From contig JACQSC010000004.1 of assembly GCA_016206155.1 (NCBI GenBank), positions 75,699 through 139,698 on the forward strand: a DNA stretch of 64,000 nt, given 5' to 3'. Below are positions 12,701-57,656 of the stretch, piece by piece. The notes under the pieces were generated by a model. The model had not been told where the DNA came from and made no database searches. It saw only the letters and a list, made by a program, of their open reading frames with translations. This DNA comes from Candidatus Uhrbacteria bacterium. Its GTDB lineage: Bacteria; Patescibacteriota; Patescibacteriia; JACQRZ01. How positions within the stretch are numbered: position 1 is the stretch's first letter; each line of letters begins with the position of its first letter. Position numbers and translations under genes: made by a program.

Positions 12701-12769
12701 GAATCATTAATTAAGAATCAGGGATTCTTTTTCTTAATTCTTGCTTCTTAATTCTTAATTCTTTTATGA

Positions 12770-13474: not shown

Positions 13475-13506
13475 ATAGGGTTTAGGGTTTAGTGTATAGG
13501 GAGTAG
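13475..13506. repeat. telomere-like TAGGGTTTAGGGTTTAG tract immediately upstream of the rpmF start
   Basis: AATAGGGTTTAGGGTTTAGTGTATAGGGAG; on the mRNA strand this reads CCCTAAACCCTAAACCCTATTCTTAT-ATG. Confidence 0.6.
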
Positions 13507-31360: not shown

Positions 31361-31376
31361 AATTCTTCGTGGAGAT

Positions 31377-33047
31377 TTATGATTGCGCACCGTTACAGCG
31401 CAACCAGGCACCTGCTTGACGCCTTGTCTTTATTCTCCCCGATAGCTGTTCTTCGCGCAACAGTTCTCGCAGTTCGCCGACGCGCGGACCCGGTTTAATG
31501 GCGCATATTCGCATAATCGCATCCCCGTCAAGCAGTGGCGGAGGAAGCGCGTGCTTGCGCAGGGTAAGGTTGTGCTGTTTTTCAAACGCGTGGCGCCGCT
31601 TCTTAAAAGCATAATATCCTTGAATGCCGACCCTCCCGCTTTCCTGAATCGAGGCAGACGAATCGCAAAAAACAAGACGCTGAAGCAGAGCTCCGCGGCG
31701 AGGATCATCATAAAAATACTTTTCAATCGTCCGGCTCCGCAGTTTATCAACGGTCGTCGTGAGAACAAGGAGGTGATTGCGCACGAGCCATGCAAGATCA
31801 TCGGCTGTTCCGTCAAACTCCGCGGCAGATGCCAAACGCAAACGATCTGCAACATGCCGCGCAATCTCCGCGCCTGCGCGATCGTGGCCATGCGTGCGGA
31901 TCCTGTCCGTCCCGTGCGTTTCTGGCGTTTGGAGCGTGGAGGGCTTGCCCGCATCATGAAACAACACCGCGAATGTAAGGAGCGCTGAATTGTTTTTCTC
32001 GCCAAACTCATTGGCGAATTTCTTACCCGCCAATACTGAGAGGGCCAGCCGCGTGTGCGTCCACACATCGCCCTCGCTGTGCCACCGCTTCTCCTGCGGG
32101 CATCCCTTCATTGTCAGCAATTCGGGAATGAGCAATTTGATAATGCCAAGATCGTCATACATATCTAACGCGCGGACAGGATCGGCAACAAACGTCTTTA
32201 CTATTTCCCTTGCGATGATCTCATAGGCAACAACACGCATGGTATTGCGATCTATTTTTTTTGTCAGCCGTTTTTCCGGAGCCATTTCTTTGTTGAGAAA
32301 TTTCGCCTTCTTCCTGATTACCTCAAGCGTCTCCTGCTCAATTTGAAATCCCAGTTGGCACGCAAAGCGCACTGCCCGGAGTATGCGCGAATAATCCTCG
32401 GCAAAGCGCGCCTGTGGTTTTCCAACCGTACGAATAATTTTTTTCTTTATGTCGGCAACCCCGCCGAACGGATCGATAACTTCCCTCGTTTTCAGATTTA
32501 GCGCAAGGGCATTGATGGTAAAGTCGCGCCGCGAAAGATCTTCTTCAATTGGAAGGCGGTGATCGGTCTTGATTTGAAAATCGCGATAGTGGCCGGTGCC
32601 GGCATCGGTGTGCTCGGTACGCGGAAGCGCAATATCGAAAACGGGGTCTGGCTCTGGTGGGGTCTGGCTCAATTTCGCGAAGCGAATTTGTGCCTGACCC
32701 CGTTCTGTGCCAGACCCCATTTTTGACATTTTTGGCAGAAACTTGAGAATGCCGAACTTTTTGCCGACCAAGCGCACGGTTCCATGTTTTTTGAAAAATC
32801 GCAAAAGCGCAGTAATCGGCACATTGCGTACGACAAAATCATAATCCTTTGTTGGCCGCGAGAGCAGCATATCGCGTACCGCACCGCCAACGAGAAATAC
32901 CTCTGCCAAAGGAAATTCCCTGCAAAGCGCTCTTACGAATCCAAACTGTGGATTACGTAATAGGGGCATTGTTTTTTTCTTTTGTGAAAAGGTTTTTTTC
33001 ATGCCATTGATGCCTTGACAAAAAGTTGCGTGATTAGGTTCATTCAT
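31377..33047 (-). CDS. cca: tRNA nucleotidyltransferase (CCA-adding enzyme) / poly(A) polymerase family with HD domain
   Basis: GGAVRD...DxD polymerase-beta head, RRDFTINAL and an HD motif LFHDAGK. Carries an in-frame insertion of a palindromic element (32643-32718). Confidence 0.75.
   Translation of the reverse strand: MNEPNHATFCQGINGMKKTFSQKKKTMPLLRNPQFGFVRALCREFPLAEVFLVGGAVRDMLLSRPTKDYDFVVRNVPITALLRFFKKHGTVRLVGKKFGILKFLPKMSKMGSGTERGQAQIRFAKLSQTPPEPDPVFDIALPRTEHTDAGTGHYRDFQIKTDHRLPIEEDLSRRDFTINALALNLKTREVIDPFGGVADIKKKIIRTVGKPQARFAEDYSRILRAVRFACQLGFQIEQETLEVIRKKAKFLNKEMAPEKRLTKKIDRNTMRVVAYEIIAREIVKTFVADPVRALDMYDDLGIIKLLIPELLTMKGCPQEKRWHSEGDVWTHTRLALSVLAGKKFANEFGEKNNSALLTFAVLFHDAGKPSTLQTPETHGTDRIRTHGHDRAGAEIARHVADRLRLASAAEFDGTADDLAWLVRNHLLVLTTTVDKLRSRTIEKYFYDDPRRGALLQRLVFCDSSASIQESGRVGIQGYYAFKKRRHAFEKQHNLTLRKHALPPPLLDGDAIMRICAIKPGPRVGELRELLREEQLSGRIKTRRQAGAWLRCNGAQS
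32643..32718. repeat. GGGGTCTGGCTCA...TGTGCCTGACCCC palindromic element inserted in-frame in the cca coding sequence
   Basis: Two left arms, a core palindrome AATTTCGCGAAGCGAATT, a right arm and an inverted left arm. Encodes KMGSGTERGQAQIRFAKLSQTPPEPDP. Confidence 0.65.
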
Positions 33048-36111: not shown

Positions 36112-36117
36112 GATAAA

Positions 36118-36222
36118 CTGGCACTGACCTACTTTCCCGCAGAGCAGTATCATCGGCGCTGAAGTGCTTAACGACCGAGTTCGGGATGGGATCGGGTGTT
36201 TCCACTTCGCTAAAAGCACCAG
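36118..36222 (-). rRNA. rrf: 5S ribosomal RNA (ends +/-5 nt)
   Basis: CUGGUGCUUUUAGCGAAGUGGAAACACCCGAUCCCAUCCCGAACUCGGUCGUUAAGCACUUCAGCGCCGAUGAUACUGCUCUGCGGGAAAGUAGGUCAGUGCCAG matches the bacterial 5S consensus. Confidence 0.85.
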
Positions 36223-36603
36223 AGAGATAGACCCCATTATCATGGGGCGCATGTCTCTGGAGGGCTTCAGATTTTATCTGAAGCCCTGCATATACAAAAG
36301 TCCTTATTATGGTCGAGATATATCGATCTATTAGTACGGCTCGGCTCAAAATCTTGCGATCCTTACACCTGCCGCCTATCAACCTCGTAATCTCCGAGGA
36401 ATCTTATAACGAAACCTAATCTTGAAGACGGCTTCACGCTTAGATGCTTTCAGCGTTTATCCGTGCCGAACGTAGCTACCCAGCGGTGCTCTTGGTAGAA
36501 CAACTGGTACACTAGAGGTTCGTTCATTGAGGTCCTCTCGTACTATCAATGAGCCTTCTCAAGTTTCAACGCCCACGGTGGATAGGAGACCGAACTGTCT
36601 CAC

Positions 36604-36812
36604 GCATGTTAATCCTTCTGTTTCCAGATGGCATGGACTATATCTTCACCCTTCAAAAAAATTCGAAGGGGCCAACGTGTAGTCTCTACGGACCCCCCGA
36701 TGGATATCGGGGTTGCCTCGGTATTCCCTTTGCCTAATGCTTTAGGGTTCACCGATATAGTTGGTGCTAGAACGATATTACTATCGCCAAACGCCGTATC
36801 GCAGATTGCGAT
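36604..36812 (-). mobile_element. group I intron, ORF-less, at the 23S site equivalent to E. coli 2593 (GAACGUC^GUGAGACAG)
   Basis: Exon sequence resumes exactly across the gap. The intron carries GAGACUACACG and AAGAUAUAGUCC group I core elements. Confidence 0.65.
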
Positions 36813-36846
<34 letters not shown>

Positions 36847-36873
36847 TGGCGAACAGCCAAACCCTTGGGAGCT

Positions 36874-37620
36874 CATTTCTGTTTTCCCGCATTACTGCGG
36901 ATATCAGACTATACCTTCACCATGGCATACCATGTTACCATGGTTGCTATAGGTGCGAACCGTATGATAAAAATTAATTTTATCGCATGATAATCTCCAA
37001 AAAAACTATCAATTAGTCGTTACGGGAGCTTCATTCTTTGATCATTATCGCATAGTTCCTCCGTCGACTTTTGGATCGAACGTTGAACGACGATAATGTA
37101 TCCGCCAACCGCGCAATATCGTACAGATTTTTTTTAGAACGAATATCTCTCTGCAAAATTGATTGTGCGATCACAATCTGTTTTTTCTTGCAGCGAGAAT
37201 ATGGTGCAATCTGTTGAAGGAACATGATTATTTCTTTTTGATCTCTCGCGACCCATTCATAGGTAGTGCGATTTGATCTGATATAACCAATTCCTGTCAC
37301 TGGAACTAACCACTCAACATCGTGCTTATGATATTGGGTTATCTTTACCGTAATGCGCACTCGAAAACCAAAACGCTTTTCGGCGTGTTTTTCAAGTGTC
37401 GCCATGATGGCACCGTCGCCATCTAAAAAACCTGCGATATATGCTCGGTCGACTTGGGAAAGAAGCTTTCCCACGGTATTAACCTTCATATACTCTCATT
37501 ATACCTGGGACCTGCGAAGTTGCAAGCCACCCGTTATAATGGAACCATCGAAGGCCTTCACCGTTTTGGGCTCGTTTATTACTCCGACGTTTCCGTCGGA
37601 GAGAGAAGGTAAATGGTTTT
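36874..37620 (-). mobile_element. group I intron at about E. coli 2535 region (CCUGGGGGUGGAG^AGCUCCCAAGG) carrying a LAGLIDADG ORF
   Basis: Exon identity is interrupted for about 750 nt, and the interruption contains ORF 37031..37489. Confidence 0.55.
37031..37489 (-). CDS. LAGLIDADG homing endonuclease (intron-encoded)
   Basis: IAGFLDGDGA motif, 152 aa. Confidence 0.85.
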   Translation of the reverse strand: MKVNTVGKLLSQVDRAYIAGFLDGDGAIMATLEKHAEKRFGFRVRITVKITQYHKHDVEWLVPVTGIGYIRSNRTTYEWVARDQKEIIMFLQQIAPYSRCKKKQIVIAQSILQRDIRSKKNLYDIARLADTLSSFNVRSKSRRRNYAIMIKE

Positions 37621-37652
37621 CTCCACCCCCAGGATGCGATGAGCCGACATCG

Positions 37653-38447
37653 TACATTCTTCTATTATTACTAATAGTGTGGACTATATCTTCTTCCTGC
37701 TTTAATCCGTGCAGGAGATGGCGTATTAGCCCTTCTTACATATAAGGGCTCTGATCGTTTCCGATCAAGTCTCTACGGGGTCATTACTCAATTTTATACT
37801 TCATGGAAGGAATCACGAATTTCGCGACTATCCCCTTCAGCGTGCGCACGCTTTCTTTCATAAACCTCACTCGATAGTAGGTCTTATCTTTATTCAAGCG
37901 CGCGTTCAGTCCCATATCCTTCAAGAATGCCAGCAGGGAGCTCTGGTCTGTCGGGGTAAATTGTTGAGTGTTCAAATAGAAGTCTGAATCTCTACATTTA
38001 CTTCCGTCATCCATAAACCATACCGCCAAACTTAATGGATTGAGTGTAATTGTGGGTACAACTTTCTTCCCCTCTTTATAAAAGAGGTTATAGAACTTGG
38101 TAATCTCTGGATGCTGCCGTGTGGTGAAGCGATATGCGATTCTTGAATTATTTCCTCTCCTTATTTTAGGACCGCTGGTAGAAATATTTTTCAGTATACT
38201 GTATTTCCAGTCAACGTATTCCTTCTGTATATACGAGTGATTAATTTCAAGAAGTACGTTTCGCCTTCCTTTCACAATGCGAGCGTATCCATCGCCAAGC
38301 AATGTACCTACTATTACGGATTTCTGAACTTGAGTAAGACTTCCCACGATATTGTCCATATGAGTATAGTATACCATATGGAGTTCATCGTTATAAGCCA
38401 TATTTTTGGTATGACATTACTGTCATAGCACCCCGATTTCGTCGTTA
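37653..38447 (-). mobile_element. group I intron at about E. coli 2500 (GGCACCU^CGAUGUCGG) carrying a LAGLIDADG ORF
   Basis: Exon breaks bracket ORF 37784..38401. Confidence 0.6.
37784..38401 (-). CDS. LAGLIDADG homing endonuclease, double-motif
   Basis: VGTLLGDGY and LAVWFMDDGS motifs, 205 aa. Confidence 0.85.
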   Translation of the reverse strand: MAYNDELHMVYYTHMDNIVGSLTQVQKSVIVGTLLGDGYARIVKGRRNVLLEINHSYIQKEYVDWKYSILKNISTSGPKIRRGNNSRIAYRFTTRQHPEITKFYNLFYKEGKKVVPTITLNPLSLAVWFMDDGSKCRDSDFYLNTQQFTPTDQSSLLAFLKDMGLNARLNKDKTYYRVRFMKESVRTLKGIVAKFVIPSMKYKIE

Positions 38448-38496
38448 AGGTGCCGAACCTTGCCGTCGCTGTGGACGCTTGGGCAAGACTAGCCTG

Positions 38497-39351
38497 TTCG
38501 TATTTTTTCTCTTATTCCTAAGAGTACTGACTATATCTTCATCCTCACATCACTCATGTGAGGAGTACGGCGTATTGGCCCGATATACTTCGGGCCCTCG
38601 TCCATAATGGACTTCAGTCGATACGGGGTTCTTCATCGATTTTATATCGCATACTTTGTATCATATGCGGAGCGATAATAGTACTAAGTTTTTTTGTTTC
38701 TGCTACAGAAAATTTGAGATTCATTGATCCATTTTTCTTCTTTTCGAGTTTCGGATGAAGGTCAAAATTTTCTTGAATCGCCCGTAAGAGTCGCCGCGTA
38801 TCGCGATCAGTATGTTTTGAGAGATAGATATACGCGGTCTTGTCGCGTTTATAATAATATCCATCATCCATATACCATACCGCCAATACAAGCGAATCTT
38901 TTAACAATCGACTTATACTTTCTGGAATCTGCTTTGCATGATCCTGATAAAAGATCATCCGCAGCTTTCCAAATTCTGACGATGAGTGTGATTGGCATCG
39001 AATAGAATAATAGAATTTTTTCCATGTTGGATGAAAGCGCGTGAGGATGCTCGGCTTTTGCATAAACCGACGCAACTCAGAAACCTTCCAAAGAAGGTAA
39101 TCCTTTTGCTGAAGCGAATGCTCCAGTCGAAGGCGCGCACTCTTTGTGCCAACACGTTGAATAAATCCATCACCCAGTACACATCCAATCACTATGTTTC
39201 GTTCACGTTGTGTCATAGTAGTTCTTGACAACGATGAAGAACTTCCCTCGGTATTACCCGTCCGATTGTCATCGGGTTTGGGCTTCACCGATATCAGCCG
39301 TTTTCGTGATCGAGCGTTGCCGCTCGATCGGGACAACAACCCTTTAAGGGT
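38497..39351 (-). mobile_element. group I intron at the E. coli 2449-equivalent site (GGGGAUA^CAGGCU, the I-SceI/omega site) carrying a LAGLIDADG ORF
   Basis: Exon breaks bracket ORF 38614..39216. Confidence 0.6.
38614..39216 (-). CDS. LAGLIDADG homing endonuclease, double-motif
   Basis: IGCVLGDGF and LAVWYMDDGY motifs. The start was set at the Met preceding the first motif; the track N-terminal extension lies in intron RNA. Confidence 0.8.
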   Translation of the reverse strand: MTQRERNIVIGCVLGDGFIQRVGTKSARLRLEHSLQQKDYLLWKVSELRRFMQKPSILTRFHPTWKKFYYSIRCQSHSSSEFGKLRMIFYQDHAKQIPESISRLLKDSLVLAVWYMDDGYYYKRDKTAYIYLSKHTDRDTRRLLRAIQENFDLHPKLEKKKNGSMNLKFSVAETKKLSTIIAPHMIQSMRYKIDEEPRID

Positions 39352-39540
39352 CTATCCCCGGAGTAGCTTTTATCCGTTGAGCTTCGACCATCCTATAATG
39401 GATCGTCGGATCACTAACTTCCGCTTTCGCGACTGCGCGACTTGTAGGTCTTGCAGTAAAGCTGGCTTTTGCGTTTGCACGTCTGCTTCCGTTTCCATCG
39501 GAAGTAAGCCAACCTTTGTAAACGCCTCCGTTACCTTTTA

Positions 39541-40499
39541 GGCATTGTGTTAATCTAACCCTTTAAGTTTATACAGCATGGCTTGATGTATGTATGGTCG
39601 CACGATTCGAGCAAAATCGTCAGCCGATTCGGCAAGAATCATGATCTGTAATCCATCTGTTTGCTTCCTCGCATGCGAGGAAAGCGCATAGCGCGATTTC
39701 AATGCATTCATCAATCGTTCGATGTCCTTTGCGTGAAAGGACTGTGTATTCAGGATTCGCGCTCTGTGATGTTTTGACTTTACCGATCCGTCATCCATAT
39801 ACCATACTGCGAGAGCAAGCGGAGTCAGCCATCGATGAATCAGTTTTGGCACTTTCTTCACTCCGTTTTTCTCATAGTACTGATGCGCATAGAAACGCAA
39901 TGCGCCATGACTGACGGTAGAGAACCCGTAGTTTACACTTCGGATTCCTTCACGTTTTTTTATTTTTTCTCTTGGGAGTGTCAGGATCCATTTTCGAAAT
40001 TCATCATAGAGCCAATCGACATATTCCTTTTGTTTGATCGAGTGTTCGATCTTCAAACGATATGTTCGACCGTTATTTTGCGTCTCGAGATGACCATCCC
40101 CCAACAGGAGCCCAAATAAAATTTCTTTTTGCCGTTTTGTCAGTGCCAATTGTTTCTTCGCGTCTTCAATAGTTCGTGAATACATACATCATGTATTTAG
40201 TTAGATCCTCAATCTGCGTCATAGGCGGTTGGTATGACACGTTTCTCCATGTTCATCGGAGTGATTGAAGTCTCAAGGTTTCCCTTGAGATCAGACTCTA
40301 TCATTCCGGTATATGCTACCGGACCGACGTAGAGTCGTTGAGGAGTCCCATTCTTCTTAGAAAACGGGTTCCCTGCTGATTGTCTGCCGACGTATGTCTT
40401 CTTCAAAACATTTTTACTAAGCAGTAGTTTTGAATTTTTGCAGATGTTCCAGCATATAGTCGGTTTTCCTTCGATTACTCGAAGGGCCCCATTGCGTTA
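39541..40499 (-). mobile_element. group I intron at about E. coli 2263 (GGUCGCCU^UAAAAGGUAACGGAGG) carrying a LAGLIDADG ORF
   Basis: Exon breaks bracket ORF 39550..40185. Shares CUAUAUGCUGGAA and CAAUCAGCAGGGAA core segments with the 1917-site intron. Confidence 0.55.
39550..40185 (-). CDS. LAGLIDADG homing endonuclease, double-motif
   Basis: FGLLLGDGH and LAVWYMDDGS motifs, 211 aa. Confidence 0.85.
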   Translation of the reverse strand: MYSRTIEDAKKQLALTKRQKEILFGLLLGDGHLETQNNGRTYRLKIEHSIKQKEYVDWLYDEFRKWILTLPREKIKKREGIRSVNYGFSTVSHGALRFYAHQYYEKNGVKKVPKLIHRWLTPLALAVWYMDDGSVKSKHHRARILNTQSFHAKDIERLMNALKSRYALSSHARKQTDGLQIMILAESADDFARIVRPYIHQAMLYKLKGLD

Positions 40500-40786
40500 A
40501 GGCGACCGCCCCAGTCAAACTACCCACCAGATACTGTCTCCCTTGCGGATAACGCAAGTAGATCAAGAATTACAAATGCACAAGGGTGGTGTCTCATTGT
40601 TCCCTTGCGGGTCCCACCTACACTGAACAGGTGCATCCATAATCCAATATCAAGTTGTAGTAAAGCTTCACGGGGTCTTTTCGTCCAGCCGTGGGAAAAG
40701 AGCATCTTCACTCCTCTTGCAATTTCGCCGGGTCCCTTGTTAAGACAGTTATTTAGTTGTTATGCCATTCGTGCAGGTCGGAACTC

Positions 40787-41518
40787 CACAGTTCATCATG
40801 TTGCCATAATGGCAGACTATACATTCATCTTCCTGTCATCCGTAGGAGACTCTCCATTGTATATCGCCTCGCTCCAAGACCATTCATCTGATAGGCGCGT
40901 GTGATGATTATTTTTAAACCATCGCTCGTTCTGTGTTGCCGCTTCAATACATTGGCACAGATTGATCGCCATGTCTCAAAGTCATGATACTTTGATGAGC
41001 GAAGGGGATACTGTTCGAAGTGTGGAATAATCTTTTCACAAAGATCGTTAATGTTTCGAACTTCATATTTGTATGTTCCGTCGTGGATATTGAATCGGAT
41101 TGTCCCGCATCCAAAGAAGTCTTTGAGGTCATCAAGAACCACTTTACTTCTTTGGTGCTGACTAATCGTGAAGCTTGGACGCGTTTCGACGCCAAGAAGA
41201 AATTTTTTCCGTATCGAAAATGATACGAGAAAACTTCCTTCACCATCAACAAACCCTGAAACATACCATGGATTGAGCTCCATAGATTGACTTATTTACT
41301 TAGGAAGAGTCGGCGTGTTACCTCTGCTCATTGCAGAAGTCTTCTCTTTCGAGGCAGTCGTTACGGGGTCAAGTCCGATTGACATCGGACCGACTTCCCA
41401 CGGTATTATCCATATATTATATCATAGTATGGACTTCACCGTTATGAGCCGATTTACATGTATCGCGTCACCACGATACTCGGGCAAGTTCTCTCCGACC
41501 AAGGAGGAACATGTGTTC
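40787..41518 (-). mobile_element. group I intron at the E. coli 1931-equivalent site (GUCGGGU^AGUUCCGACC) carrying a LAGLIDADG ORF
   Basis: The exon stops after GUCGGGU and resumes at GUUCCGACCUGCACGAAUGG. 235 nt of intron separate the exon end from the ORF ATG. Confidence 0.65.
40825..41283 (-). CDS. LAGLIDADG homing endonuclease, single-motif I-CreI-like
   Basis: YVSGFVDGEGSF motif, 152 aa. Confidence 0.85.
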   Translation of the reverse strand: MELNPWYVSGFVDGEGSFLVSFSIRKKFLLGVETRPSFTISQHQRSKVVLDDLKDFFGCGTIRFNIHDGTYKYEVRNINDLCEKIIPHFEQYPLRSSKYHDFETWRSICANVLKRQHRTSDGLKIIITRAYQMNGLGARRYTMESLLRMTGR

Positions 41519-41539
41519 ACCCGACAAGGAATTTCGCTA

Positions 41540-41797
41540 GCCGCTTCCTTTGTGCGACGAACTCTCTCTTCACCCATTTATACTATCATTATAGCATAAA
41601 TGGGGCACGGCGTAGAGTTTCTGGAGGGTCCGATTGACGTCGGACTTCCCTGCTGATTGCCCAAGGCATTTGGGTTTCCAGCATATAGCCATGTTTTGAC
41701 CATTTCCATATTACTATGGAATGAGGCAGCTTTTTCTATTTACCCATTCACTATAACGGTCCCAGTCCTTCTCGATTCCACCATTGTGAAATCGAGA
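41540..41797 (-). mobile_element. group I intron, ORF-less, at the E. coli 1917-equivalent site (GGUCCUAAGGU^AGCGAAAUUCC)
   Basis: About 255 nt separate perfectly conserved exon flanks; no ORF inside. Confidence 0.6.
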
Positions 41798-43570
41798 ACC
41801 TTAGGACCCTTATAGTTAGGGCCGGCGTTCATCAGCGCTTCAGTTCAAAGCATTCCAGATAAATCCAGTCAACTTCTCCCTTTAACGTTCTGACACTGGC
41901 CAGGCATCAGCCCCTATACATAGCCTTTCGGCTTAGCAGAGACCTATGTTTTTGGTAAACAGTCACTAAATAAACGTTAGCTGCGCCCGGCCTAAAGGCC
42001 GGGGAGGCATATCCCGAAGTTACGCCTAGCTTTTTTGCCGAGTTCCTAAACAAGGGTTCTCCCGTACACCTGAGTATACTCAACCCGTCCACCTGTGTCG
42101 GTTTGCGGTACGAGTGCTCACCAGTTAACTCGTGGGGTGCAGGAACTAATCCAGTATCGTTTGAGCGATATTGTTCTGTGTCCATATTCAAGGCGCGAGG
42201 AGCGACACGATGTAAATGCATCGTTAGCGATCTCGCAACACAGAATATGGCACAGAACAAATCGCCCGAAGGGAGACTAAAAAATGGCCGATTTTTTTGT
42301 TGCTCCTCCTCGAAGTACTACTCAGTACTCCTTTGTCGTCGCGCCTCGAAATCGTCTCATTTTTTAGCCTCTCAAGACAATGCTGGATTAGTTCCTGCAC
42401 CCCTGGGCTTTTCTAGGCTTCTCCGTCTCCCGGCTTGCAGAATATCGCTATTCCGCTCGATCCCATACCTTACGATATGGTCTGCGCGTATAACCAAAAC
42501 ACGCCCGGAACGTGGAAAAGCGTCCCCCATCGAAACTGATGAGCAGTTCAGGAATATTAACCTGATATCCATCGGCTACCCCTCATTAATCAAGGACTCA
42601 CCTTAGGATCGACTAACCCTGGGTCGATTTGCGTTGCCCAGGAATCCTTGGACTTTCGGTGTTGAAGGTTTTCACTTCAATTTTTGCTACTTATGCCAAC
42701 ATTCGCACTTCTGTACGCTCCACCATTTTTCACAAAACAGCTTCATCGCCTACAGAACGTTCCTCTACCGCCCAGGCCTAAAGGCCTGGGCCCATATCTT
42801 CGGTACCACGTTTGAGCCCCGATATATTTTCGGCGCGCGGCAACTGGACCAGTGAGCTATTACGCTTTCTTTAAATGATGGCTGCCTCTAAGCCAACATC
42901 CTGGTTGTATAAGTCGCGACACCACCTTTTACACTTAACGTGGATTTAGGGACCTTAGATGATGATCTGGGCTGTTCCCCTTTAGACGGACGGACCTTAG
43001 CGCCCATCGTCTGACTCCCGCTGTATAGCATTTCCAGTATTCGGAGTTTGGTTGGGGGCGGCAGGATTTCTCCACCCGACCCCATTCAGTGCTCTACCCC
43101 TGGATGCCACAACGAGGCTAGTCCAAAAACTATTTCGAGGAAAACAAGCTATTACCGAGTTCGATTGGAATTTCTCCCCTAACCTCAGCTCATCCCCATG
43201 CGTTGCACGACATGTGGGTTCGGGCCTCCTCCGACCTTTCGGACGGACTCACCCTGGCCAAGGCTAGCTCACCCGGTTTCGTGTCTTGTGCATGCTGCTT
43301 CTTGAGGGTGTAGGGTTCAGGGGTCAGGGTTTAGATTGCGGTGACCGCAACCCTCTACCCTTTACCCTAAACCCTTTACCCTCAAATGCGCCCCATTCAG
43401 ACTCGGTTTCCCTTCGCTTCCTCCGCTTCATGCGGATTAAACTTGCAACATACAGCAAACTCGTTGGCTCATTCTTCAATAGGAACGCCGTCACCCCCGG
43501 ATTACTCCGAAAGCTCCGACTCCTTGTAAGCACACGGTTTCAGATACTATTTCATCGGCCTCCCGGCCTG

Positions 43571-43610
<40 letters not shown>

Positions 43611-44637
43611 GTCAAAAGTGTTTAGCCTTACCAGATAGTCCTGGCGGATTCCCGCTCGCTTTCACGAGGCGCGCGGTACTTGGGAACACATACGACAGAT
43701 TGGAAGATTGTTTTTGCATACGGGGCTTTCACCCTCTTTGGCAGGCCTTCCCAGACCTTTCTCCTAACAATCCGCCGCTCTGCATGGTTGGATCAGCAAC
43801 CACATATATGCGTCCCGCTACCCCAAAAAAACCTATAGCCCGATCGCCTTCCCTCACAACTTGAAATCTTCCTTGCGGAAAAAACCTTATCATGAGTTAG
43901 AGTTTTCTTGGTTTTGGCTCTTCCCTTTTCGCTCGCCACTACTCGGGGAATAAACTCTTGTTCTCTTTTCCTCCGGCTACTGAGATGTTTCACTTCACCG
44001 GGTTGTCCCCCCGACGTACGTCGGGGTACCACGATCTTCCATCGTGGTGGGTTTCCCCATTCGGAAATCCTCGGATCACAGGTTGCTTGCCACCTTCCCG
44101 AGGCTTATCGCAGGCTGCTACGTCCTTCATCGTCTTTTGACGCCAAGGCATCCTCCGTGTGCCCTTAACTATATCTCGACCATAATCAAGACTTTTGCTC
44201 ATATCCGCCGCGCAAATACGGCAGTATGAACGTGTATACGTTTGAACTATGCTCTTTTCGTTTACTTTCTATTCAATTCAATTGTCAATGTGCGCTCTCT
44301 TTTTTAAGGAGAGTGGCGGGGGATTGAGCCTTTCTATCTCCCGTCACCATCCTCAAGCGTCAATTTTTTCTAAAGACAACAAAAAAACCGCCGGTAAGCG
44401 GTCTCATGAGGCGATTAGTCGTCTCGTTCAAGGCCCCTTACGTGTGCTTCTTTTTACTTTGTAGCAATCGAAACATTCGTTTTTAAGAGAAAATCGTTGA
44501 ACGAGACTGATGCGTCTCTCCTTGTTATTAAAACAAGTATTGCCATTATAGATGATAATAAAGGGATGTCAAGCCCCTATTTATAGGAAAAAATTTCCTC
44601 TGCTGTGCATGAAATGGGGATATTTTGGGGAAAAATA

Positions 44638-44869: not shown

Positions 44870-47578
44870 ATGATTGCAGATATCTCCTTTCTTGAGCGCC
44901 GCATAGAAGTGAAACAAAAACTGGCGCAAAAAAAATTCCGAGGGCAAAAACGCACCCCGGTTTATTCTCTGCTTGCCTTAATCGTTATGATTACCGGCAC
45001 GCTGGGAAGTTATTTGACACTTTCTTATGCCGCAACATCAATACGCCGCAGCCCGCTTGTGTTTCAGGGAAGGATTACTGACGCGAACTATGTTCCGATT
45101 GCTGATTCAACAACGCGGAGAATGGTCTTTCGCATCTATAACGCTGCAACTGCGGGAAATTGCCAATGGTCAACAGGAAACGCTGCTGACACGGCAGAAG
45201 CAACAAACTGCGCCATTGATATCACGCTCGCCGGAGACAACGCCGCGGAAGACAATGCTTCGGTTGCGACGACAATCACACGTGGCGTGTTTTCAGTGCC
45301 GATTGGAGACACTGGCTATCATGCGAATATGCGCGCGCTTCGCCTTGACTTTAACAACGCGGCAAACGAAGTATATTATATTGAGATAAGCGTCAAAAAT
45401 TCGAGCGGGGAGTATGAAACCCTTTCCCCGCGCATACGCATCGGATCGAGCGCGTATGCGTACAATGCGGATGAACTGGACGGAATCACGTCAGCGTCAT
45501 TCGCACAATTGGTCGGACAGGCAGGAGGACAAATACTTATCGGCGGAACAGCGACAACTGACGATTTGACATTGAGAACCACATCTGGAGCGGGCGAAAG
45601 CGGCGCTGACATGATTTTTCAGGTTGGAAACAATGGCGCGACAGAGGCGATGAGGATACTAAATGGCGGGAACATAGGCATAGGCGATACGTCGCCTGAT
45701 TCACTTCTGAATATTCAGTCTAGCGCGGCCGAGAATAATGGCATCATCGTTTCCCAAACAAATGCCGGGGATTATGATCCGTTCATACAATTTGAGCTTA
45801 CGGACGGCACTGCGTCGTATACCATGGGCATTGATGACAGCGTTGCTGGCGACCCATTCAAAATTTCAACAACCGCACTCGGGTCTGGAGATCTTCTTAC
45901 AATTGATTCAAGAATAAACACTTCCGGAGTTAGCGCATTTTCGTTTACCACTCCATTTCATACAGCAGGCATTACAAGCGTTTCAACGGCAGAATATACA
46001 ACGCTTACTGTCACGCCGCCCGTTATTCTGCTCTCAGGACAAACACAAGTAACATCGCAAATGGATTCAATCGTATTCAGCCAGCCAACCGTTTCAGACG
46101 CGCAAGCAATCACTGTAGATGATGCGGCGCTTCTCACGCTCCAAGGAGCGCCACTGGGCCAAACAGGAGTTACGATCAGTGATTCATACGCTCTAAAAAT
46201 AAACACCGCGACTGCCGGGGGAACCACTCGAACATATGGTCTGTATGTGGATGCGATGACAGGAGGCGTGGGTACGCATTATGCGGCCGCGTTTGCAAGC
46301 GGCAATGTCGGAATCGGCACGGCAACGCCAGGGCAAAAATTATCCGTTGCTGGAACTTTTGGTATTTTAGAAGGTGGGGCGTCACCAACTTATTATACCA
46401 TCTTCCAGGGTGGAGATCAGGCCGCGAACTTAACCTATACGCTCCCTTCAGCCGATGGAACGAACGGACAAGTCCTCGCTACAAATGGCGGCGGCACATT
46501 AAGTTGGACCACATCATCAGCTGGTTCTTCTTGGTCGCTTTTGGGCAATGCGTTTTCCGGAACAGAAAAATTGGGTTCAACGAACGATTACTCCGTTGTA
46601 ATGATCAACAACAATACCGATAGATTCCGCTTCACTACCAAAGGACAAATCGAGATATTAAGTTCAGCGGAATCTGTATTGATTGGCGAGGAAGCCGGGA
46701 AAAATCAAGACAACTCGGCAGGTAGGTATAATGTTTTCGTTGGACGCCAGGCCGGTCTTTCCAACACCACCGGCTCTGAGAATGTAGCAAGCGGATATCA
46801 AGCCCTTTATTCAAACACAACAGGCACTTATAACACGGCAATCGGACCTTACGCCCTTTTGTTAACCACTACTGGAACTAGAAACACGGCAAGCGGATTC
46901 GAGGCCCTTCGTGGTAACACCACAGGCTATGATAACACAGCAAACGGGTATGTAGCGCTTCGTTCCAACACCACAGGCTATCATAATGTCGCAAGCGGAC
47001 GCGGAGCGCTTTATTTAAACACCACGGGTTATCAGAATGTAGCAAACGGATTTGAAGCGCTTTATTCAAACACCACAGGCACTTATAACACAGCAAACGG
47101 ATATCAGGCGCTTTATTCAAACACCACAGGCACTTATAACACAGCAAACGGGATTAGCGCCCTTAGTGGCAACACCACTGGCAGCAATAACATCGCGATT
47201 GGCGTTGGCGCAGGCGATAACATTACCTCTGGTTCAAATAATATAATAATTGGTTTTAGTGTTGATGCGCCGGTTGCCACAAACAGCAACCAACTTTCCA
47301 TTGGCAACCTTATCTTTGCCACGGGCGGCTTTGGCACAGGAACTACTATTGGAAGCGGCAATGTCGGTATTGGCACGGCAACACCGCAAAGCACCCTCCA
47401 GGTAGATGGGGGATATATTCAGTTTGATTTTGTTACAGTCGCGCCCAATGCCGCAGATTGTGATGACGCAGCTGAAGCGGGACGTGTCATTGTTTTTGCA
47501 AATGGCGCAGGCGCCGCGCAACTCTATGTCTGTGATTCTGATGATGGCGATGGCAGCCCAGGCTGGGTCACGAAGTAA
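44870..47578 (+). CDS. large cell-surface protein with N-terminal membrane anchor and tandem NTTGxxNTAxG beta-helix repeats (tail-fibre/adhesin-like) and a GNVGIGTATP motif
   Basis: 902 aa with repeated (A)L(Y/R)SNTTG(T)YNTA(N)G units and a C-terminal GIGTATPQSTLQVDG segment typical of tail-fibre/adhesin stalks. Confidence 0.65.
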   Translation: MIADISFLERRIEVKQKLAQKKFRGQKRTPVYSLLALIVMITGTLGSYLTLSYAATSIRRSPLVFQGRITDANYVPIADSTTRRMVFRIYNAATAGNCQWSTGNAADTAEATNCAIDITLAGDNAAEDNASVATTITRGVFSVPIGDTGYHANMRALRLDFNNAANEVYYIEISVKNSSGEYETLSPRIRIGSSAYAYNADELDGITSASFAQLVGQAGGQILIGGTATTDDLTLRTTSGAGESGADMIFQVGNNGATEAMRILNGGNIGIGDTSPDSLLNIQSSAAENNGIIVSQTNAGDYDPFIQFELTDGTASYTMGIDDSVAGDPFKISTTALGSGDLLTIDSRINTSGVSAFSFTTPFHTAGITSVSTAEYTTLTVTPPVILLSGQTQVTSQMDSIVFSQPTVSDAQAITVDDAALLTLQGAPLGQTGVTISDSYALKINTATAGGTTRTYGLYVDAMTGGVGTHYAAAFASGNVGIGTATPGQKLSVAGTFGILEGGASPTYYTIFQGGDQAANLTYTLPSADGTNGQVLATNGGGTLSWTTSSAGSSWSLLGNAFSGTEKLGSTNDYSVVMINNNTDRFRFTTKGQIEILSSAESVLIGEEAGKNQDNSAGRYNVFVGRQAGLSNTTGSENVASGYQALYSNTTGTYNTAIGPYALLLTTTGTRNTASGFEALRGNTTGYDNTANGYVALRSNTTGYHNVASGRGALYLNTTGYQNVANGFEALYSNTTGTYNTANGYQALYSNTTGTYNTANGISALSGNTTGSNNIAIGVGAGDNITSGSNNIIIGFSVDAPVATNSNQLSIGNLIFATGGFGTGTTIGSGNVGIGTATPQSTLQVDGGYIQFDFVTVAPNAADCDDAAEAGRVIVFANGAGAAQLYVCDSDDGDGSPGWVTK

Positions 47579-50898: not shown

Positions 50899-50954
50899 TA
50901 GCGCGCAAAAAAGAACCCCGTGTGATTCGGGGTTCTTTTTTTGTTCTATCTTCC

Positions 50955-51030
50955 TGGCGGGGGGTAGAGGAATCGAACCTCTCTCTTCGATTTTGGAGAT
51001 CGAAATTCTGAACCGATGAACTAACCCCCC
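50955..51030 (-). tRNA. tRNA-Trp, anticodon CCA, CCA 3' end encoded
   Basis: Acceptor GGGGGGT/ACCCCCC, anticodon loop CUCCAAA, T arm AGAGGTTCGATTCCTCT, discriminator G, 3' CCA. Confidence 0.85.
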
Positions 51031-53380: not shown

Positions 53381-53512
53381 CAAGGAGATTGCCTGGCGAG
53401 CGCGCAGATTCTCGTTCGCATTACCGGGGTTGTTCCAGTTGACGTTGAGCTTGCCGTCACTGTTCGTGTTCACGTTCGGAACATTACCGTCGCTATTGCG
53501 CGACCCAGCACA
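53381..53512 (-). repeat. DGR template repeat (TR)
   Basis: 132 nt matching the VR except at 21 positions. On the minus strand every differing TR base is an adenine. In the VR frame it is rich in AAC/AAT codons. Confidence 0.85.
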
Positions 53513-53821: not shown

Positions 53822-54592
53822 TTACAAGGAAACTGCCTGGCGAGCGCGCAGATGCACGAGCGCATCACCGGGGCGGATCCAGTGGACGCGGAGCTTGCCG
53901 TCACTGCGCGTGTCCACGCTCGGAACATTACCGTCGCTAAGGCGCGACCCAGCACACAACGTAACGTTCACCACGTCGAGGCGCTTCCCGGTTTCCCGAA
54001 AAAACGCCAAGTTGTGGATCAGGCACTCGAGTAGAGTTTCGGTCGTGATGCCGCGTTCGGCAATTTGATCCGCCGACGTGTTCTTGAGCTCCTCGTCGGC
54101 TTCAGCCCCATCACGCACCCAGATCGCGTAGGACCCATTTGAGGTGTCCCGTTCGTTCTGAATGATGACCTCGTCAAGAGATGTCTCCGTGTACTTCCAC
54201 GACCCGAACGCGGTCTTGCACTGCTGGTACGCCCCTTCAATCGTGACACCACTGGCGATCACGAGGAGCCGCCATTTGCCCTGATCGGGCTGTGGCGGGA
54301 TATTCTTCTCAGCCAGATTCACTGCGAGTCCGAATTCCTTTTCGTAAAACTCGCCCCACGGATCAAGAAGAGTTGGACTCCTCAGAAACCGCGCCATCAT
54401 GGCACGGGTGATCCTTCCGGCATCGCTCTGAGCGATTAGCTCAGCGATTTGTCCGGTCGTGATCTTCGCCATTTTTTCATCTCCTTCACCAATCCGGTAA
54501 TAAGGAAAGACATCGCGCGCTAACGCAACATCCGCTTCCGTAAACCGAAAAGGCAAACACGGCCAGAATCCCTGCTCCAGCCTTGTAACCAA
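53822..54592 (-). CDS. DGR target protein; variable C-terminal approx. 40 aa encoded by the VR
   Basis: 256 aa. The C-terminus ...CAGSRLSDGNVPSVDTRSDGKLRVHWIRPGDALVHLRARQAVSL is encoded by the VR up to the stop codon. The N-terminus may begin at an internal Met. Confidence 0.7.
   Translation of the reverse strand: MVTRLEQGFWPCLPFRFTEADVALARDVFPYYRIGEGDEKMAKITTGQIAELIAQSDAGRITRAMMARFLRSPTLLDPWGEFYEKEFGLAVNLAEKNIPPQPDQGKWRLLVIASGVTIEGAYQQCKTAFGSWKYTETSLDEVIIQNERDTSNGSYAIWVRDGAEADEELKNTSADQIAERGITTETLLECLIHNLAFFRETGKRLDVVNVTLCAGSRLSDGNVPSVDTRSDGKLRVHWIRPGDALVHLRARQAVSL
53825..53956 (-). repeat. DGR variable repeat (VR), ends at the target stop codon
   Basis: See TR. Substitutions occur only at TR adenine positions, except in the last 10 nt (IMH-like region). 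Confidence 0.85.
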
Positions 54593-54615: not shown

Positions 54616-57399
54616 CTATTCAAAAGTCAAGGCATGCATATCGCCCCAGTTCGCGCCTACTTTCACATCCGCCACGAGTGGCGCAGCCAACGCAACAACA
54701 CTCTCCATCTCCTTCTTGATGAGGGACGCGAGCTCTTGTTCCATACCTTTTGGAATCTCAAACACCAACTCATCATGAACCTGTAAAATCATTCCTCCTT
54801 TTGTCATCCCGGCGGGAGGCCAGCTTGCCCGGCTCTGCCGGGGGATCCAGTTCGTAAAATGTTTCTCTATTTCAATCATCGCGAGCTTGATGATATCTGC
54901 GCCTGTCCCCTGAATAGGCATATTGATGGCGGCGCGCTCTGCGGCGGCACGAACCTGAAACATCCCAGAGGAAAGCTCTGGAATATACCTGCGCCGCCCA
55001 AACATCGTTTCGACATATCCGGCTTTTCTCGCCTCGACAAGCGTCCTATCCATATACTCCGCAATCCCGGGATACACGCTAAAGTACCGATCAATAAAAT
55101 CACGCGCCTCATCCTGCGAAATCCCCGTACTTCGAGCAAGGCCATGCGGCCCCATACCATAGATAATGCCAAAATTAACCTCCTTCGCCGCTCTTCGCAT
55201 CTGAGGGGTTACATCCTTGATATCAACGCCCTGCACCGCTGAGGCAGTCATGGCATGAATGTCTTTCCCTTCGCGAAACGCGGAAAGCATTGCTTCGTCT
55301 TTTGCAAATGATGCCACAATACGCAGTTCAAGCTGGGAATAGTCAGCGGCAAGCAATATATATCCTTCTTGTGCAACAATGCTTTTTCGAATTTCGCGAC
55401 CCATTTCCGTACGAATCGGAATGTTTTGAAAGTTCGGATCAGATGAAGATAACCTACCCGTCGCTGCAATCGTCTGATTAAATGACGTATGCACACGTCC
55501 CGTCGTCACATCAATCAACTTTGGTAGTGCGTCGACATACGTATTTGCGAGCTTGGCGCGCTCGCGGTATTCAAGAATTTCATCGATAATCGGGTGAAGC
55601 CCACGCATCTTCTCAAGCTCCGACGCCGCGGTTGATATGCCTGTCTTGCCCTTCTTTAATTTCGGTGCATTGATCGCAAGTGTTTCAAACAATACTTTCT
55701 TGAGTTGAATGGGGGAGTTGATGTTAAACTCCTCGCCGGCGAGCGCATGAATATTTTTTACCAATCCCGAGAGTTCTTTGTGGAGCTTGGCAGACAGCGT
55801 GTTCAAAAAATCAACATCGATCTTCACACCCCGCCGCTCCATGCGCGCCAAAATGGGAATAAGGGGAATTTCAAACTTCTCACACACAGAAAGAAGGTTC
55901 TCTGTTTTGAGTTTTTCCATCACACGACTGCGCAATCGCCATGTATAGTCAGCATCCTCGCACGCATATTCGGACAACTGCTCAAGTGGAACGTCGGCCA
56001 TGGAAATCTGCTGCTTCCCTTTTCCGATCAATAATTCAATCGAAATCTTTTGATGGCCAAACTCTTGAAAGCTCATGGCGTCCAAGCTGTATGCCCTCCC
56101 GCCGGGATTTTCGACATAGGCGCCCACCATGGTGTCCATCTCAATGCCGGATAGTTCAATGCCGACATTGTGTAACACGTGCAGGTCGTATTTAATGTTA
56201 TGCCCTGTTTTCTTAACGCCGAAATCATCAAGAATCGCTTTCAGTGCGCCTCTGTGAGTCTTGGAGGCGAGCTTCCAGGGAAGGAAAAAAGCAGTACCAT
56301 CCTCAAATGAGAAACTAACACCAACCAACTCCGCGCGCAGAGCGTTAAGGCTTGTTGTCTCTGTGTCAACGGCAAAGTGCCGCACGCCGGAAAGTGTCTT
56401 CAGGAATGCATCGATCTTCTCGGTGGTGTCCAGCAGCTGATAATGAGAAAATGGGGTCTGGCTCAATTTCCGCAAGGAATTTGTGCCTGACCCCATTTTC
56501 TCGAAGCCTTGCGCGAAGGCTGACTGGAGGCGGGGAATGAGTGTTCGAAATTCTAGCTCCTGAAAAAGCGGTATGAGCACGTCGCCGTGAGGCGCTTTCA
56601 GCGCCGAGGCCTCAATGTCAAAATCAATCGGTACATCATATCGAAGCTGAACCAATGCATAGCTCATTGCAAAATCCTCGGCATGAACTTTAAGAAGCGA
56701 ATGCACCTTTGCTTTGATTGTCGGATCCCCTTGCTGCACAGCATCTTCAAGAGCCTCGCGGGAAGGAAATTGCTTCACAAGCTCTATTGCGGTCTTCTCG
56801 CCAATGCCCTTCACGCCCGGAATATTGTCAGAAGGGTCTCCACGCAGCGCTTTATAGAGAGTAAGATCGCGGGGCATAAGCCCGTCGTACCGTTCGCGTA
56901 CCGCCGCTTCGTCAAATATCGTTGTTTCAACGATGCTCTTTTTTAACGTATACACTTTTGTGTGATCGTCAACGAGCTGGAGGGTGTCCATATCACCGGT
57001 AACGATAACCGTCTCTGTGTCCGGATGGTCATGCGCCATTCGCCGCGCGAGTGTCGCAATGATATCATCGGCCTCAAACCCATCTTTTTCAAATATGGGG
57101 ATACCGAATCCGTGAAGAATTTGCTTGATGCGATCAATTTGATCGTAAAGCTCTTGGGGCTGTTTTACGCGCGTTGCTTTGTATGCTTTGTATTGTTCGT
57201 GTCGAAACGTCGGACCCTTTTTGTCAAATGCAACAACGCAATATGCCGGTTCGAGCTCCTTGAGCGCCTTCATCAGAATCTGAGTAAAGCCGTATACGGC
57301 GTTAACAACCTCTCCCTTTTGTGTTGTCAGCGGCGGTAATGCGTGCCATGCGCGATGCAACAACGCATTGCCGTCGATGATCATGAATCGTTTGTTCAT
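54616..57399 (-). CDS. polA: DNA polymerase I
   Basis: 5' nuclease (FMIIDGNALLHRAWHA), 3'-5' exo and a family A polymerase with motif A. The start was set at Met23 of the track ORF because upstream codons overlap tRNA-Cys. Contains two in-frame palindromic-element insertions. Confidence 0.9.
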   Translation of the reverse strand: MNKRFMIIDGNALLHRAWHALPPLTTQKGEVVNAVYGFTQILMKALKELEPAYCVVAFDKKGPTFRHEQYKAYKATRVKQPQELYDQIDRIKQILHGFGIPIFEKDGFEADDIIATLARRMAHDHPDTETVIVTGDMDTLQLVDDHTKVYTLKKSIVETTIFDEAAVRERYDGLMPRDLTLYKALRGDPSDNIPGVKGIGEKTAIELVKQFPSREALEDAVQQGDPTIKAKVHSLLKVHAEDFAMSYALVQLRYDVPIDFDIEASALKAPHGDVLIPLFQELEFRTLIPRLQSAFAQGFEKMGSGTNSLRKLSQTPFSHYQLLDTTEKIDAFLKTLSGVRHFAVDTETTSLNALRAELVGVSFSFEDGTAFFLPWKLASKTHRGALKAILDDFGVKKTGHNIKYDLHVLHNVGIELSGIEMDTMVGAYVENPGGRAYSLDAMSFQEFGHQKISIELLIGKGKQQISMADVPLEQLSEYACEDADYTWRLRSRVMEKLKTENLLSVCEKFEIPLIPILARMERRGVKIDVDFLNTLSAKLHKELSGLVKNIHALAGEEFNINSPIQLKKVLFETLAINAPKLKKGKTGISTAASELEKMRGLHPIIDEILEYRERAKLANTYVDALPKLIDVTTGRVHTSFNQTIAATGRLSSSDPNFQNIPIRTEMGREIRKSIVAQEGYILLAADYSQLELRIVASFAKDEAMLSAFREGKDIHAMTASAVQGVDIKDVTPQMRRAAKEVNFGIIYGMGPHGLARSTGISQDEARDFIDRYFSVYPGIAEYMDRTLVEARKAGYVETMFGRRRYIPELSSGMFQVRAAAERAAINMPIQGTGADIIKLAMIEIEKHFTNWIPRQSRASWPPAGMTKGGMILQVHDELVFEIPKGMEQELASLIKKEMESVVALAAPLVADVKVGANWGDMHALTFE
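54802..54850. repeat. TGTCATCCCGGCG...CCGGGGGATCCAG element inserted in-frame near the polA C-terminus
   Basis: Encodes WIPRQSRASWPPAGMTK between conserved IIK.AM and MILQVHDELVFE segments. The same termini occur in the intergenic composite element at 24743-24886. Confidence 0.65.
56453..56494. repeat. GGGGTCTGGCTCA-N17-TGTGCCTGACCCC palindromic element inserted in-frame in polA
   Basis: Encodes KMGSGTNSLRKLSQTP in the linker between the 5' nuclease and 3'-5' exo regions. It is the same family as the cca insert and the 57525 array. Confidence 0.7.
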
Positions 57400-57403
57400 A
57401 AAT

Positions 57404-57479
57404 TGGAGGCCACGACCGGAATCGAACCGGTGCGATAGCTGTTTTGCAGACAGCCGTGTTACCACTTCACCACGTGGCC
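57404..57479 (-). tRNA. tRNA-Cys, anticodon GCA, discriminator U73, CCA encoded
   Basis: Acceptor GGCCACG/CGTGGCC, anticodon loop CUGCAAA, T arm ACCGGTTCGATTCCGGT, 3' UCCA. Confidence 0.8.
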
Positions 57480-57524
57480 AGAATATTTCAAAAGTATATC
57501 ACCGCATGCAAAAAAAGAGAAACG

Positions 57525-57656
57525 TGGTCTGGCTCGCGTATGGGGTCTGGCTCAGTTTTTGTTACTGCGTATGGGGTCTGGCTCAGTTTTTGCTACTGCA
57601 AAATCTGTGCCTGACCCCGTTCCACCGTTCCCCGTTCCACATGCGTGCCTGACCCC
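57525..57656. repeat. intergenic array of GGTCTGGCTC / GCCTGACCCC element halves plus a CCGTTCC triplet
   Basis: Three left arms (two followed by AGTTTTTG(T/C)TACTGC), two right arms TGCCTGACCCC, and CCGTTCCACCGTTCCCCGTTCCAC. Confidence 0.65.

Follow-up and report, generated by a model that had tools for sequence, protein, structure and literature searches.

Within a 64,000-nucleotide stretch of a Candidatus Uhrbacteria genome (contig JACQSC010000004.1, positions 75,699 to 139,698; hereafter the window), a short palindromic hairpin sits in frame inside polA, the gene for DNA polymerase I. Our analysis indicates, with a probability of roughly 80%, that this hairpin is a non-autonomous miniature repeat of the repetitive extragenic palindrome (REP) or terminal inverted repeat (TIR) type, belonging to a REP-associated tyrosine transposase (RAYT) or TIRYT system. 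Specifically, from sequence comparison we propose that its arms are the TIRs of a RAYT/TIRYT gene, which encodes a Y1 HUH tyrosine transposase of the IS200/IS605 superfamily.

On the plus strand the core of the polA copy (56453-56494) reads GGGGTCTGGCTC-aatttccgcaaggaattt-GTGCCTGACCCC, with arms at 56453-56464 and 56483-56494, and outside it lie the flanks GAGAAAAT and ATTTTCTC, core and flanks together making a 58-nt hairpin at 56445-56502. Folded as single-stranded DNA this hairpin reaches -24.1 kcal/mol (z = -9.7), and an equally good fold was found in none of 200 shuffles. The plus strand carries three symmetric T:T mismatches, 4 nt apart, and a GCAA loop, while the opposite strand, which is the coding strand of PolA, adopts the same fold with A:A in place of the T:T mismatches. 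Every copy of the element has two T:T mismatches in its arms, and in this genome a third is present in the inner stem. The sequence-only reading of the window had described a 42-nt nested hairpin that adds 14-17 residues to PolA without breaking its frame. The hairpin is real and in frame, encoding PolA residues 301-317 (KMGSGTNSLRKLSQTPF) in the linker as that reading said; the repeated unit however measures about 54-58 nt, and the DNA folds, with T:T mismatches in the arms of every copy, do not allow the arms to be called exact complements.

Arm searches located the family at four loci of the window, namely polA, the gene for CCA tRNA nucleotidyltransferase (Cca), a gene for an RluD-like pseudouridine synthase, and an intergenic array. 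Together these loci hold 10 arm pairs, against 0.23 pairs expected and a maximum of 2 in Markov-shuffled sequence. The copies span 54-133 nt and have no open reading frame (ORF) of their own. Those in polA, in the Cca gene (-31.2 kcal/mol, z = -9.0) and in the array (-32.2 kcal/mol, z = -6.5) are GC-rich imperfect palindromes forming stable single-stranded stem-loops, a defining trait of REPs. The likeness to REP/REPIN-RAYT systems extends to the conserved stem mismatches, which are also a feature of the E. coli REPs, and perhaps to a multi-copy, dispersed distribution, of which the window shows four loci in 64 kb; in other genomes the repeat occurs as inverted doublets and clusters.

The link to the transposases was found with jackhmmer, starting from E. 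coli RayT and searching every stop-to-stop ORF in the window and in 238 fetched loci. RAYT genes were present in seven of the fetched loci, and in all seven, hairpins of the same superfamily lie inside the ORF or within ~90 bp of it. The seven proteins match Pfam PF01797 (Y1_Tnp), and in NCBIfam they hit NF047646 (REP-associated tyrosine transposase) alone, scoring 66-81 where the cut-off is 80. As in known REP/REPIN-RAYT systems, RAYT genes in these other genomes are flanked by inverted copies of the repeat. In three Planctomycetota loci (L015, L058 and L112) the TIRs of the RAYT gene are GGGGTCAGGCTAC and GTAGCCTGACCCC, with AAAAGGGGTCAGGCTAC lying 53 nt upstream of the gene (-53) and GTAGCCTGACCCC overlapping the stop codon, which is supplied by the GTAG tag of that copy; another locus (L183) holds a RAYT gene with complete hairpins on both sides. 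Moreover, GGGGTCAG at -53, with its complement overlapping the stop codon, fits the motif GGGGWSAS, which according to Di Nocera et al. 2013 (PMC3733652) is shared by the TIRs of the RAYT-like TIRYT genes.

Each arm of the window copies is identical to a RAYT terminal repeat minus one A, the left arm carrying in addition the substitution A7 -> T. The deletion of an A on each side converts a T-A/A-T step into the inner T:T mismatch, and the outer mismatch results from A7 -> T in the left arm. Since the arms match the RAYT termini, the dispersed hairpin can be read as the two ends of a RAYT unit fused around a short core, and therefore as a miniature, non-autonomous derivative of it. Inverted repeats also flank four RAYT relatives (60-63% identical) that were selected solely on protein similarity; their arms (GGGGACATTCTAC/GTAGAATGTCCCC and GGGGTCACTGCTCA/TGAGCAGTGACCCC) are related but not the same, indicating that the arms co-vary with the enzyme. 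In other clades, the RAYTs that accompany GGGGTC.GGC.C hairpins share only 30-38% identity with those of the Planctomycetota clade. All-against-all BLAST clustering of the ORFs of 118 loci had ranked the RAYT cluster third, and it was recognised as such only after the jackhmmer search; the largest cross-phylum cluster, of ABC-transporter ATPases, was dismissed as chance paralogy.

The Planctomycetota RAYT genes are themselves hosts of the repeat: each has from one to three in-frame REP hairpins of its own in the stretch that joins the catalytic core to the C-terminal domain (for instance ..AAWAEKGSGSRRVPDPF..). This was seen in L015 (6593-7462), L058 (7015-7860), L112 (3681-4580), L113 (3-512) and L024 (1232-1870), and the first intragenic hairpin has a conserved position in four genomes.

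Beyond the window, an exact-arm scan with GGGGTCTGGCTC-N(4-34)-GTGCCTGACCCC, using one genome per species, recovered the exact 12-nt arms, mismatches included, at no fewer than 118 loci, in 63 or more assemblies that represent about ten phyla. Among the matches listed, at least 25 assemblies belong to Planctomycetota, at least 17 to Pseudomonadota and at least 7 to Nitrospirota; Bacteroidota, Actinomycetota, Omnitrophota, Patescibacteria, Desulfobacterota, Armatimonadota and Acidobacteriota are also represented there, as are the cultured isolates Duganella, Geomonas and Bordetella petrii. Between the invariant arms the inner part is variable yet self-pairing, and the outer flanks of a copy complement each other at a higher rate than do flanks taken from different copies.

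Two strand-specific features expected of REPs, stem mismatches and a characteristic loop, are present in the family. d(GNA) triloops closed by C-G are unusually stable DNA mini-hairpins. Across 129 distinct copies the terminal loop on the T:T strand was GCA in 23, GAA in 9 and TCCG in 6, with complementary loops nearly absent and GNA loops confined to the T:T strand, an asymmetry of sequence that points to one functional folded strand. T:T mismatches occurred in 135 of 136 arm pairs, at loci that had been selected for them. An unbiased scan of metagenomes that left the four variable arm positions as N returned ~120 hits, in which the perfect palindrome GGGGTCAGGCAC...GTGCCTGACCCC accounted for 28, the form GGGGTCAGGCCC...GGGCCTGACCCC for 14, a single-mismatch form for 15 and the double T:T form of the window for 14, which shows that the hairpins form a superfamily of arm variants.

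Several observations weigh against the assignment to a RAYT system or set the element apart from known ones. Three of the four window loci are intragenic, while REPs are predominantly extragenic, and the host is a bacterium of the candidate phyla radiation (CPR). The tag of the window copies, in GTGCCTGACCCC, is GTG, that is, GTAG minus its A, rather than the canonical GTAG, and the stems are long, with 12-bp arms and a variable inner stem. No RAYT gene was found in the 64-kb window by the jackhmmer search, and no CPR-labelled protein appeared among the best 120 homologues of a Planctomycetota RAYT, so that a cognate RAYT in this CPR lineage is putative. A RAYT beside the exact T:T variant was seen in Planctomycetota only, and the RAYT model does not account for the presence of identical arms in nine other phyla, which may reflect either horizontal spread or deep conservation of specificity; vertical inheritance within a lineage is the rule described for REP/REPIN-RAYT systems, whereas the exact arms are here common to about ten phyla. 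Finally, the T:T strand is the plus strand at all four window loci. The GC skew of the window, -0.05 throughout, considered together with the direction in which the rRNA and tRNA genes run, suggests that the plus strand is the leading-strand template, contrary to the prediction from IS608-like elements, a comparison that with n = 4 says little.

Some of these points would also fit an independent selfish palindrome, similar to the Rickettsia palindromic elements (RPEs) and spreading by an unknown route, whose resemblance to RAYT termini is coincidental or reflects RAYTs that merely attract hairpins. The window lacks a RAYT gene, most of the fetched hairpin loci have no RAYT nearby, and RPEs, which share the in-frame habit, have no known transposase. 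We regard this as very unlikely, since the window arms equal the RAYT termini but for the deleted A and one left-arm substitution, since in several genomes those termini always stand at the same places (at -53 and across the stop codon), and since the arms co-vary with the RAYT clades. Moreover RAYTs are normally single-copy genes, so that most repeats are expected to lie far from them (PMC5581495).

A RAYT-driven origin would proceed as follows. By analogy with the characterised TnpA-REP enzymes, the transposase would recognise the element as a hairpin folded in single-stranded DNA, with the conserved T:T mismatches and the GNA/GNRA loop marking the active strand. TnpA-REP activity and strand choice on the REPs of E. 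coli depend on their conserved stem mismatches (PMC8266576), and the strand asymmetry of loops and mismatches described above is what a single-stranded substrate would predict. The enzyme would then cleave beside the hairpin and transfer the strand to new sites. One-arm duplications are frequent (the window array, the nested Cca copy, L060, L063 and L112) and would fit repeated cutting and rejoining at the foot of the hairpin. Insertion could take place anywhere, and in a compact CPR genome many copies may land in genes; the survivors would be those that are open in frame and lie at permissive places, such as interdomain linkers (PolA and RluD) or a variable surface loop (Cca). We infer, on the same analogy, that a RAYT acted in this Uhrbacteria lineage through such single-strand cut-and-transfer chemistry.

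The polA gene (54616-57402, minus strand) encodes a protein of 927 aa that is 100% identical to P0001 (DNA polymerase I of a Candidatus Uhrbacteria bacterium), and the insert occupies the linker between its 5'-nuclease and 3'-5' exonuclease domains. Comparison with solved structures places the end of the 5'-nuclease part near residue 290 and the start of the Klenow-like part near residue 318. In an alignment of 60 proteins the linker is highly variable in length and sequence across PolA, and the insert peptide was absent from all 59 orthologues aligned, the nearest (P0002, 74% identity) included. The AlphaFold model, built on 53 sequences, has a mean confidence (pLDDT) of 88.8 and falls below 50 in two segments only, residues 302-314, which belong to the insert, and residues 853-866, a second small lineage-specific loop. 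The earlier proposal that this segment is an insertion rather than ancestral sequence was borne out, and in the model the added peptide forms a low-confidence inter-domain segment at the boundary of the 5'-nuclease and Klenow-like parts. The polA insertion is specific to this lineage. Read from the sequence, the copy leaves four of its six frames free of stop codons, and a consensus scan found no terminator-like site there or at the array.

Further repeats lie in or near polA. The loop at residues 853-866 (RQSRASWPP; window ~54790-54830) is a second, lineage-specific insert encoded by a GC-rich imperfect palindrome. In the nearest orthologue (P0002; L246, 4996-5075) polA contains another in-frame hairpin, GGGGTCATCCCC...GGGGATGACCCC, encoding GEKGSSPFFARGEKSVLQKRGMTPF in the second variable loop before LQVHDEL; set beside the linker insert, it makes hairpin insertion into polA recurrent and independent in this clade. 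Just downstream of polA a 132-nt direct repeat is present at 53381-53512 and 53825-53956, the two copies being 86% identical and 444 nt apart.

The Cca gene (31377-33002, minus strand) encodes a protein of 541 aa identical to P0241 and holds a nested hairpin on the plus strand at 32637-32724, with outer arms at 32643-32654 and 32707-32718 around an inner complete element (32659-32701) with a GCGAAGC loop. The longer copy described there by the sequence-only reading (32643-32718) is thus present as it stated. It is in frame and encodes KMGSGTERGQAQIRFAKLSQTPPEPDPVF, in a variable loop ahead of the conserved DIALPRTE motif and strand. As that reading had proposed, Cca orthologues were aligned, and the shortest of them lack an insert, with almost nothing at this loop. 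Several other Uhrbacteria Cca proteins carry related GSGT...EPDP peptides at the same loop, and a contig of another Uhrbacteria metagenome-assembled genome (MAG; JACQWH01, with a Cca 57% identical) has a hairpin there.

The intergenic array, likewise noted before, was confirmed on the plus strand at 57524-57656, upstream of a tRNA gene (57407-57479); it comprises left arms at 57524, 57542 and 57573 followed by right arms at 57607 and 57645, with nested stems. To these three loci we add one that the sequence-only reading had missed, an old, degenerate copy on the plus strand (31098-31183) in the RluD-like gene (30371-31360, minus strand). Its arms, GGGGTCTGGTCC and GTGCCTGACCTC, span 31106-31175, it is in frame and encodes EMRSGTGHNQELRIKNQAVVTGPDPIF between the S4 domain and the catalytic domain, and its fold is no longer significant (z = -1.2). 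The loop of this copy holds a second repeat, of the AATTCTTAATTC type (31121-31152; peptide NQELRIKNQ), and this loop copy is conserved in L257. The same repeat also forms the N-terminus of the RluD-like protein (MNQELRIRNEE; 31336-31367) and recurs at 12725-12756.

Had the PolA and Cca linkers contained the peptide from the outset, or did they need it for their function, with its palindromy incidental, the GSGT...EPDP-like peptides at one loop of several Uhrbacteria Cca proteins would be expected. We give this idea next to no credence, the peptide being missing from the 59 PolA orthologues and from the shortest Cca orthologues, and the insert being modelled with low AlphaFold confidence. Moreover the same DNA is intergenic in the array and recurs in unrelated genes and phyla.

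Since counterparts occur at the same sites in the second Uhrbacteria MAG (JACQWH01), where the insert of the RluD-like gene has an orthologue (L257), the Cca and RluD insertions appear to be old and vertically inherited. The RluD copy is older than the split of the Uhrbacteria species and has been inherited as part of the protein; the same probably holds for the Cca copy. Between the Uhrbacteria genomes the RluD insert is more conserved than the gene around it, with nucleotide identities of 88% vs 76%, and of 82% vs 59% at third codon positions, the latter comparison covering 28 codons only.

This conservation could mean that the hairpins have been domesticated and serve the host at the DNA or RNA level, for example in stabilising mRNA, in pausing or terminating transcription or in recombination, rather than being tolerated junk. 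The arms and their mismatches are also conserved across phyla, stable GNA/UNCG-type loops have been selected on one strand, and effects of REPs on mRNA fate have been reported in E. coli. Even so a host function is unlikely in our judgement: besides the few codons behind the third-position figures, the RluD copy folds no better than shuffles, the polA copy lacks a terminator-like site by consensus scan, and close relatives manage without the polA insert. Orientation relative to the flanking ORFs showed no bias either, on rough ORF calls that in high-GC loci are too crude for the orientation to be trusted.

The habit of residing in coding sequence is not confined to Uhrbacteria. In two Planctomycetota the T:T hairpin is in frame in RecQ helicases (L069, 1165-1311; L097, 313-362), and in L069 Pfam places the insert between the DEAD and Helicase_C domains. 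Three Prevotellaceae proteins (L017, L041 and L056) carry it in frame as the peptide QGSGTSVTSQATSQMSQTP; only an N-terminal domain was identified in these hosts, and the BT4734-like domain was confirmed for L017 and L041 only. A valyl-tRNA synthetase (ValRS) candidate has the insert ahead of its first recognised domain, where it may precede the true start. Since both orientations and several frames are used in these hosts and in the RAYTs, in-frame survival looks like selection after random insertion, not targeting.

Other classes of element were considered and set aside. An autonomous IS200/IS605 element does not fit copies of 54-133 nt that contain no ORF and lack tnpA and tnpB. The core sites of integron attC sites follow the consensus RYYYAAC...GTTRRRY (R''/R'), and sequence inspection found the GTTRRRY core absent; inspection also ruled out a CRISPR repeat, a signal recognition particle RNA and a tRNA-like structure. 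An intrinsic terminator was rejected on the empty consensus scan at the polA copy and the array. Rfam gave only generic miRNA-type hairpin matches, far below gathering scores, the whole window having been searched at the gathering threshold and the element with six small loci by E-value. As to phages as a vector, 2.9 million viral contigs yielded 10 hairpins and one weak RAYT relative, and this route was rejected.

The sequence-only reading had likened the element to RPEs proliferating in frame, and had taken it to be undescribed. The first comparison holds in part: this is a proliferating palindromic repeat that inserts with the frame kept, and RPEs too are in-frame palindromes in functional, often essential protein genes, adding a peptide at permissive sites. 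It does not extend to membership of an RPE family, because sequence, tag, distribution and transposase linkage all differ. RPE-1 consists of longer palindromes, the R. conorii elements RPE-4 and RPE-6 are CGTC-tagged, and no dedicated transposase is known for RPEs, whereas the window family, unrelated in sequence and with another tag, measures 54-88 nt, occurs in many phyla and is linked to RAYTs.

As regards novelty, the sequence family itself was not found in the literature searched, where a search for the four arm 12-mers returned unrelated primer sequences only, and the top-ranked papers for RAYTs in the CPR made no mention of RAYTs. The kind of element is however known, given the RAYT termini, the TIRYT motif, the published intragenic REPs and arms shared by about ten phyla. 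Di Nocera et al. 2013 (PMC3733652) report GTAG-tagged REPs in eight phyla, Planctomycetes among them, and TIRtrons, or TIRYT repeats, as moderately abundant families that are single, dimeric or clustered, with GGGGWSAS TIRs around RAYT-like genes. The window family resembles these, with the difference that both TIRs are here fused into a compact, often intragenic hairpin, and the likeness noted here is at the level of the motif. The same paper describes intragenic REPs in genes for DNA polymerase I, pseudouridine synthases and tRNA enzymes, with flexible linkers or loops proposed as their sites; these are the gene classes of our PolA, RluD and Cca hosts, while the species there (Proteobacteria, Opitutus and Rickettsia) and the REP families are other ones. 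Because REP/TIRYT repeats and intragenic REPs in the same gene types are described in that paper, we consider the element a new example rather than a new class.

The window contains several other repeats. The 23S rRNA gene (36116-44175, minus strand) is split by at least three group I introns (Rfam: 36614-36819, 40272-40514 and 41548-41798), in keeping with a CPR bacterium as the source, and between its pieces lie two ORF-like repeat families (36617/37663/38510 and 38002/38859/39786), which are possibly homing endonuclease genes. A telomere-like G-rich heptamer (TTTAGGG/TTAGGGG) occurs in short runs at 13476, 17964 (minus strand), 22736, 36028, 43304-43376 and 51042; the run at 43304-43376 forms a palindrome (..GGGTTTAGATTGCGGTGACCGCAA..CTAAACC) inside the region matched to 23S rRNA and may be the 'family 1' of the sequence-only reading. 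At 46742-47243 seven or more tandem copies follow one another with a period of 51 nt and show 60-74% identity to the reference copy, and a conserved, terminator-like hairpin, AACAAAGCCCCGCGTGAAGCGGAGCTTTGTTTTTT, stands beside tRNA genes at 27758-27805, 29760-29807 and 50909-50956.

The finding extends the world of REPs and RAYTs to a CPR bacterium, and in these compact genomes the hairpins become extra peptides in essential enzymes (Pol I, the CCA-adding enzyme and RluD). This is relevant to the annotation and modelling of CPR proteins and to the way 'lineage-specific inserts' are read. The exact cross-phylum arms, mismatches included, are moreover a concrete substrate for testing DNA recognition by this RAYT clade, and they also permit a test of horizontal transfer of REP-RAYT systems. 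More speculatively, and with considerable doubt, a single REP/RAYT lineage, marked by 24 conserved arm bases, two T:T mismatches among them, may have moved between at least ten phyla including the CPR, with the Uhrbacteria copies now being permanent linkers under nucleotide-level constraint. If true, such movement would contradict the picture of REPIN-RAYT systems as strictly vertical and lineage-specific.

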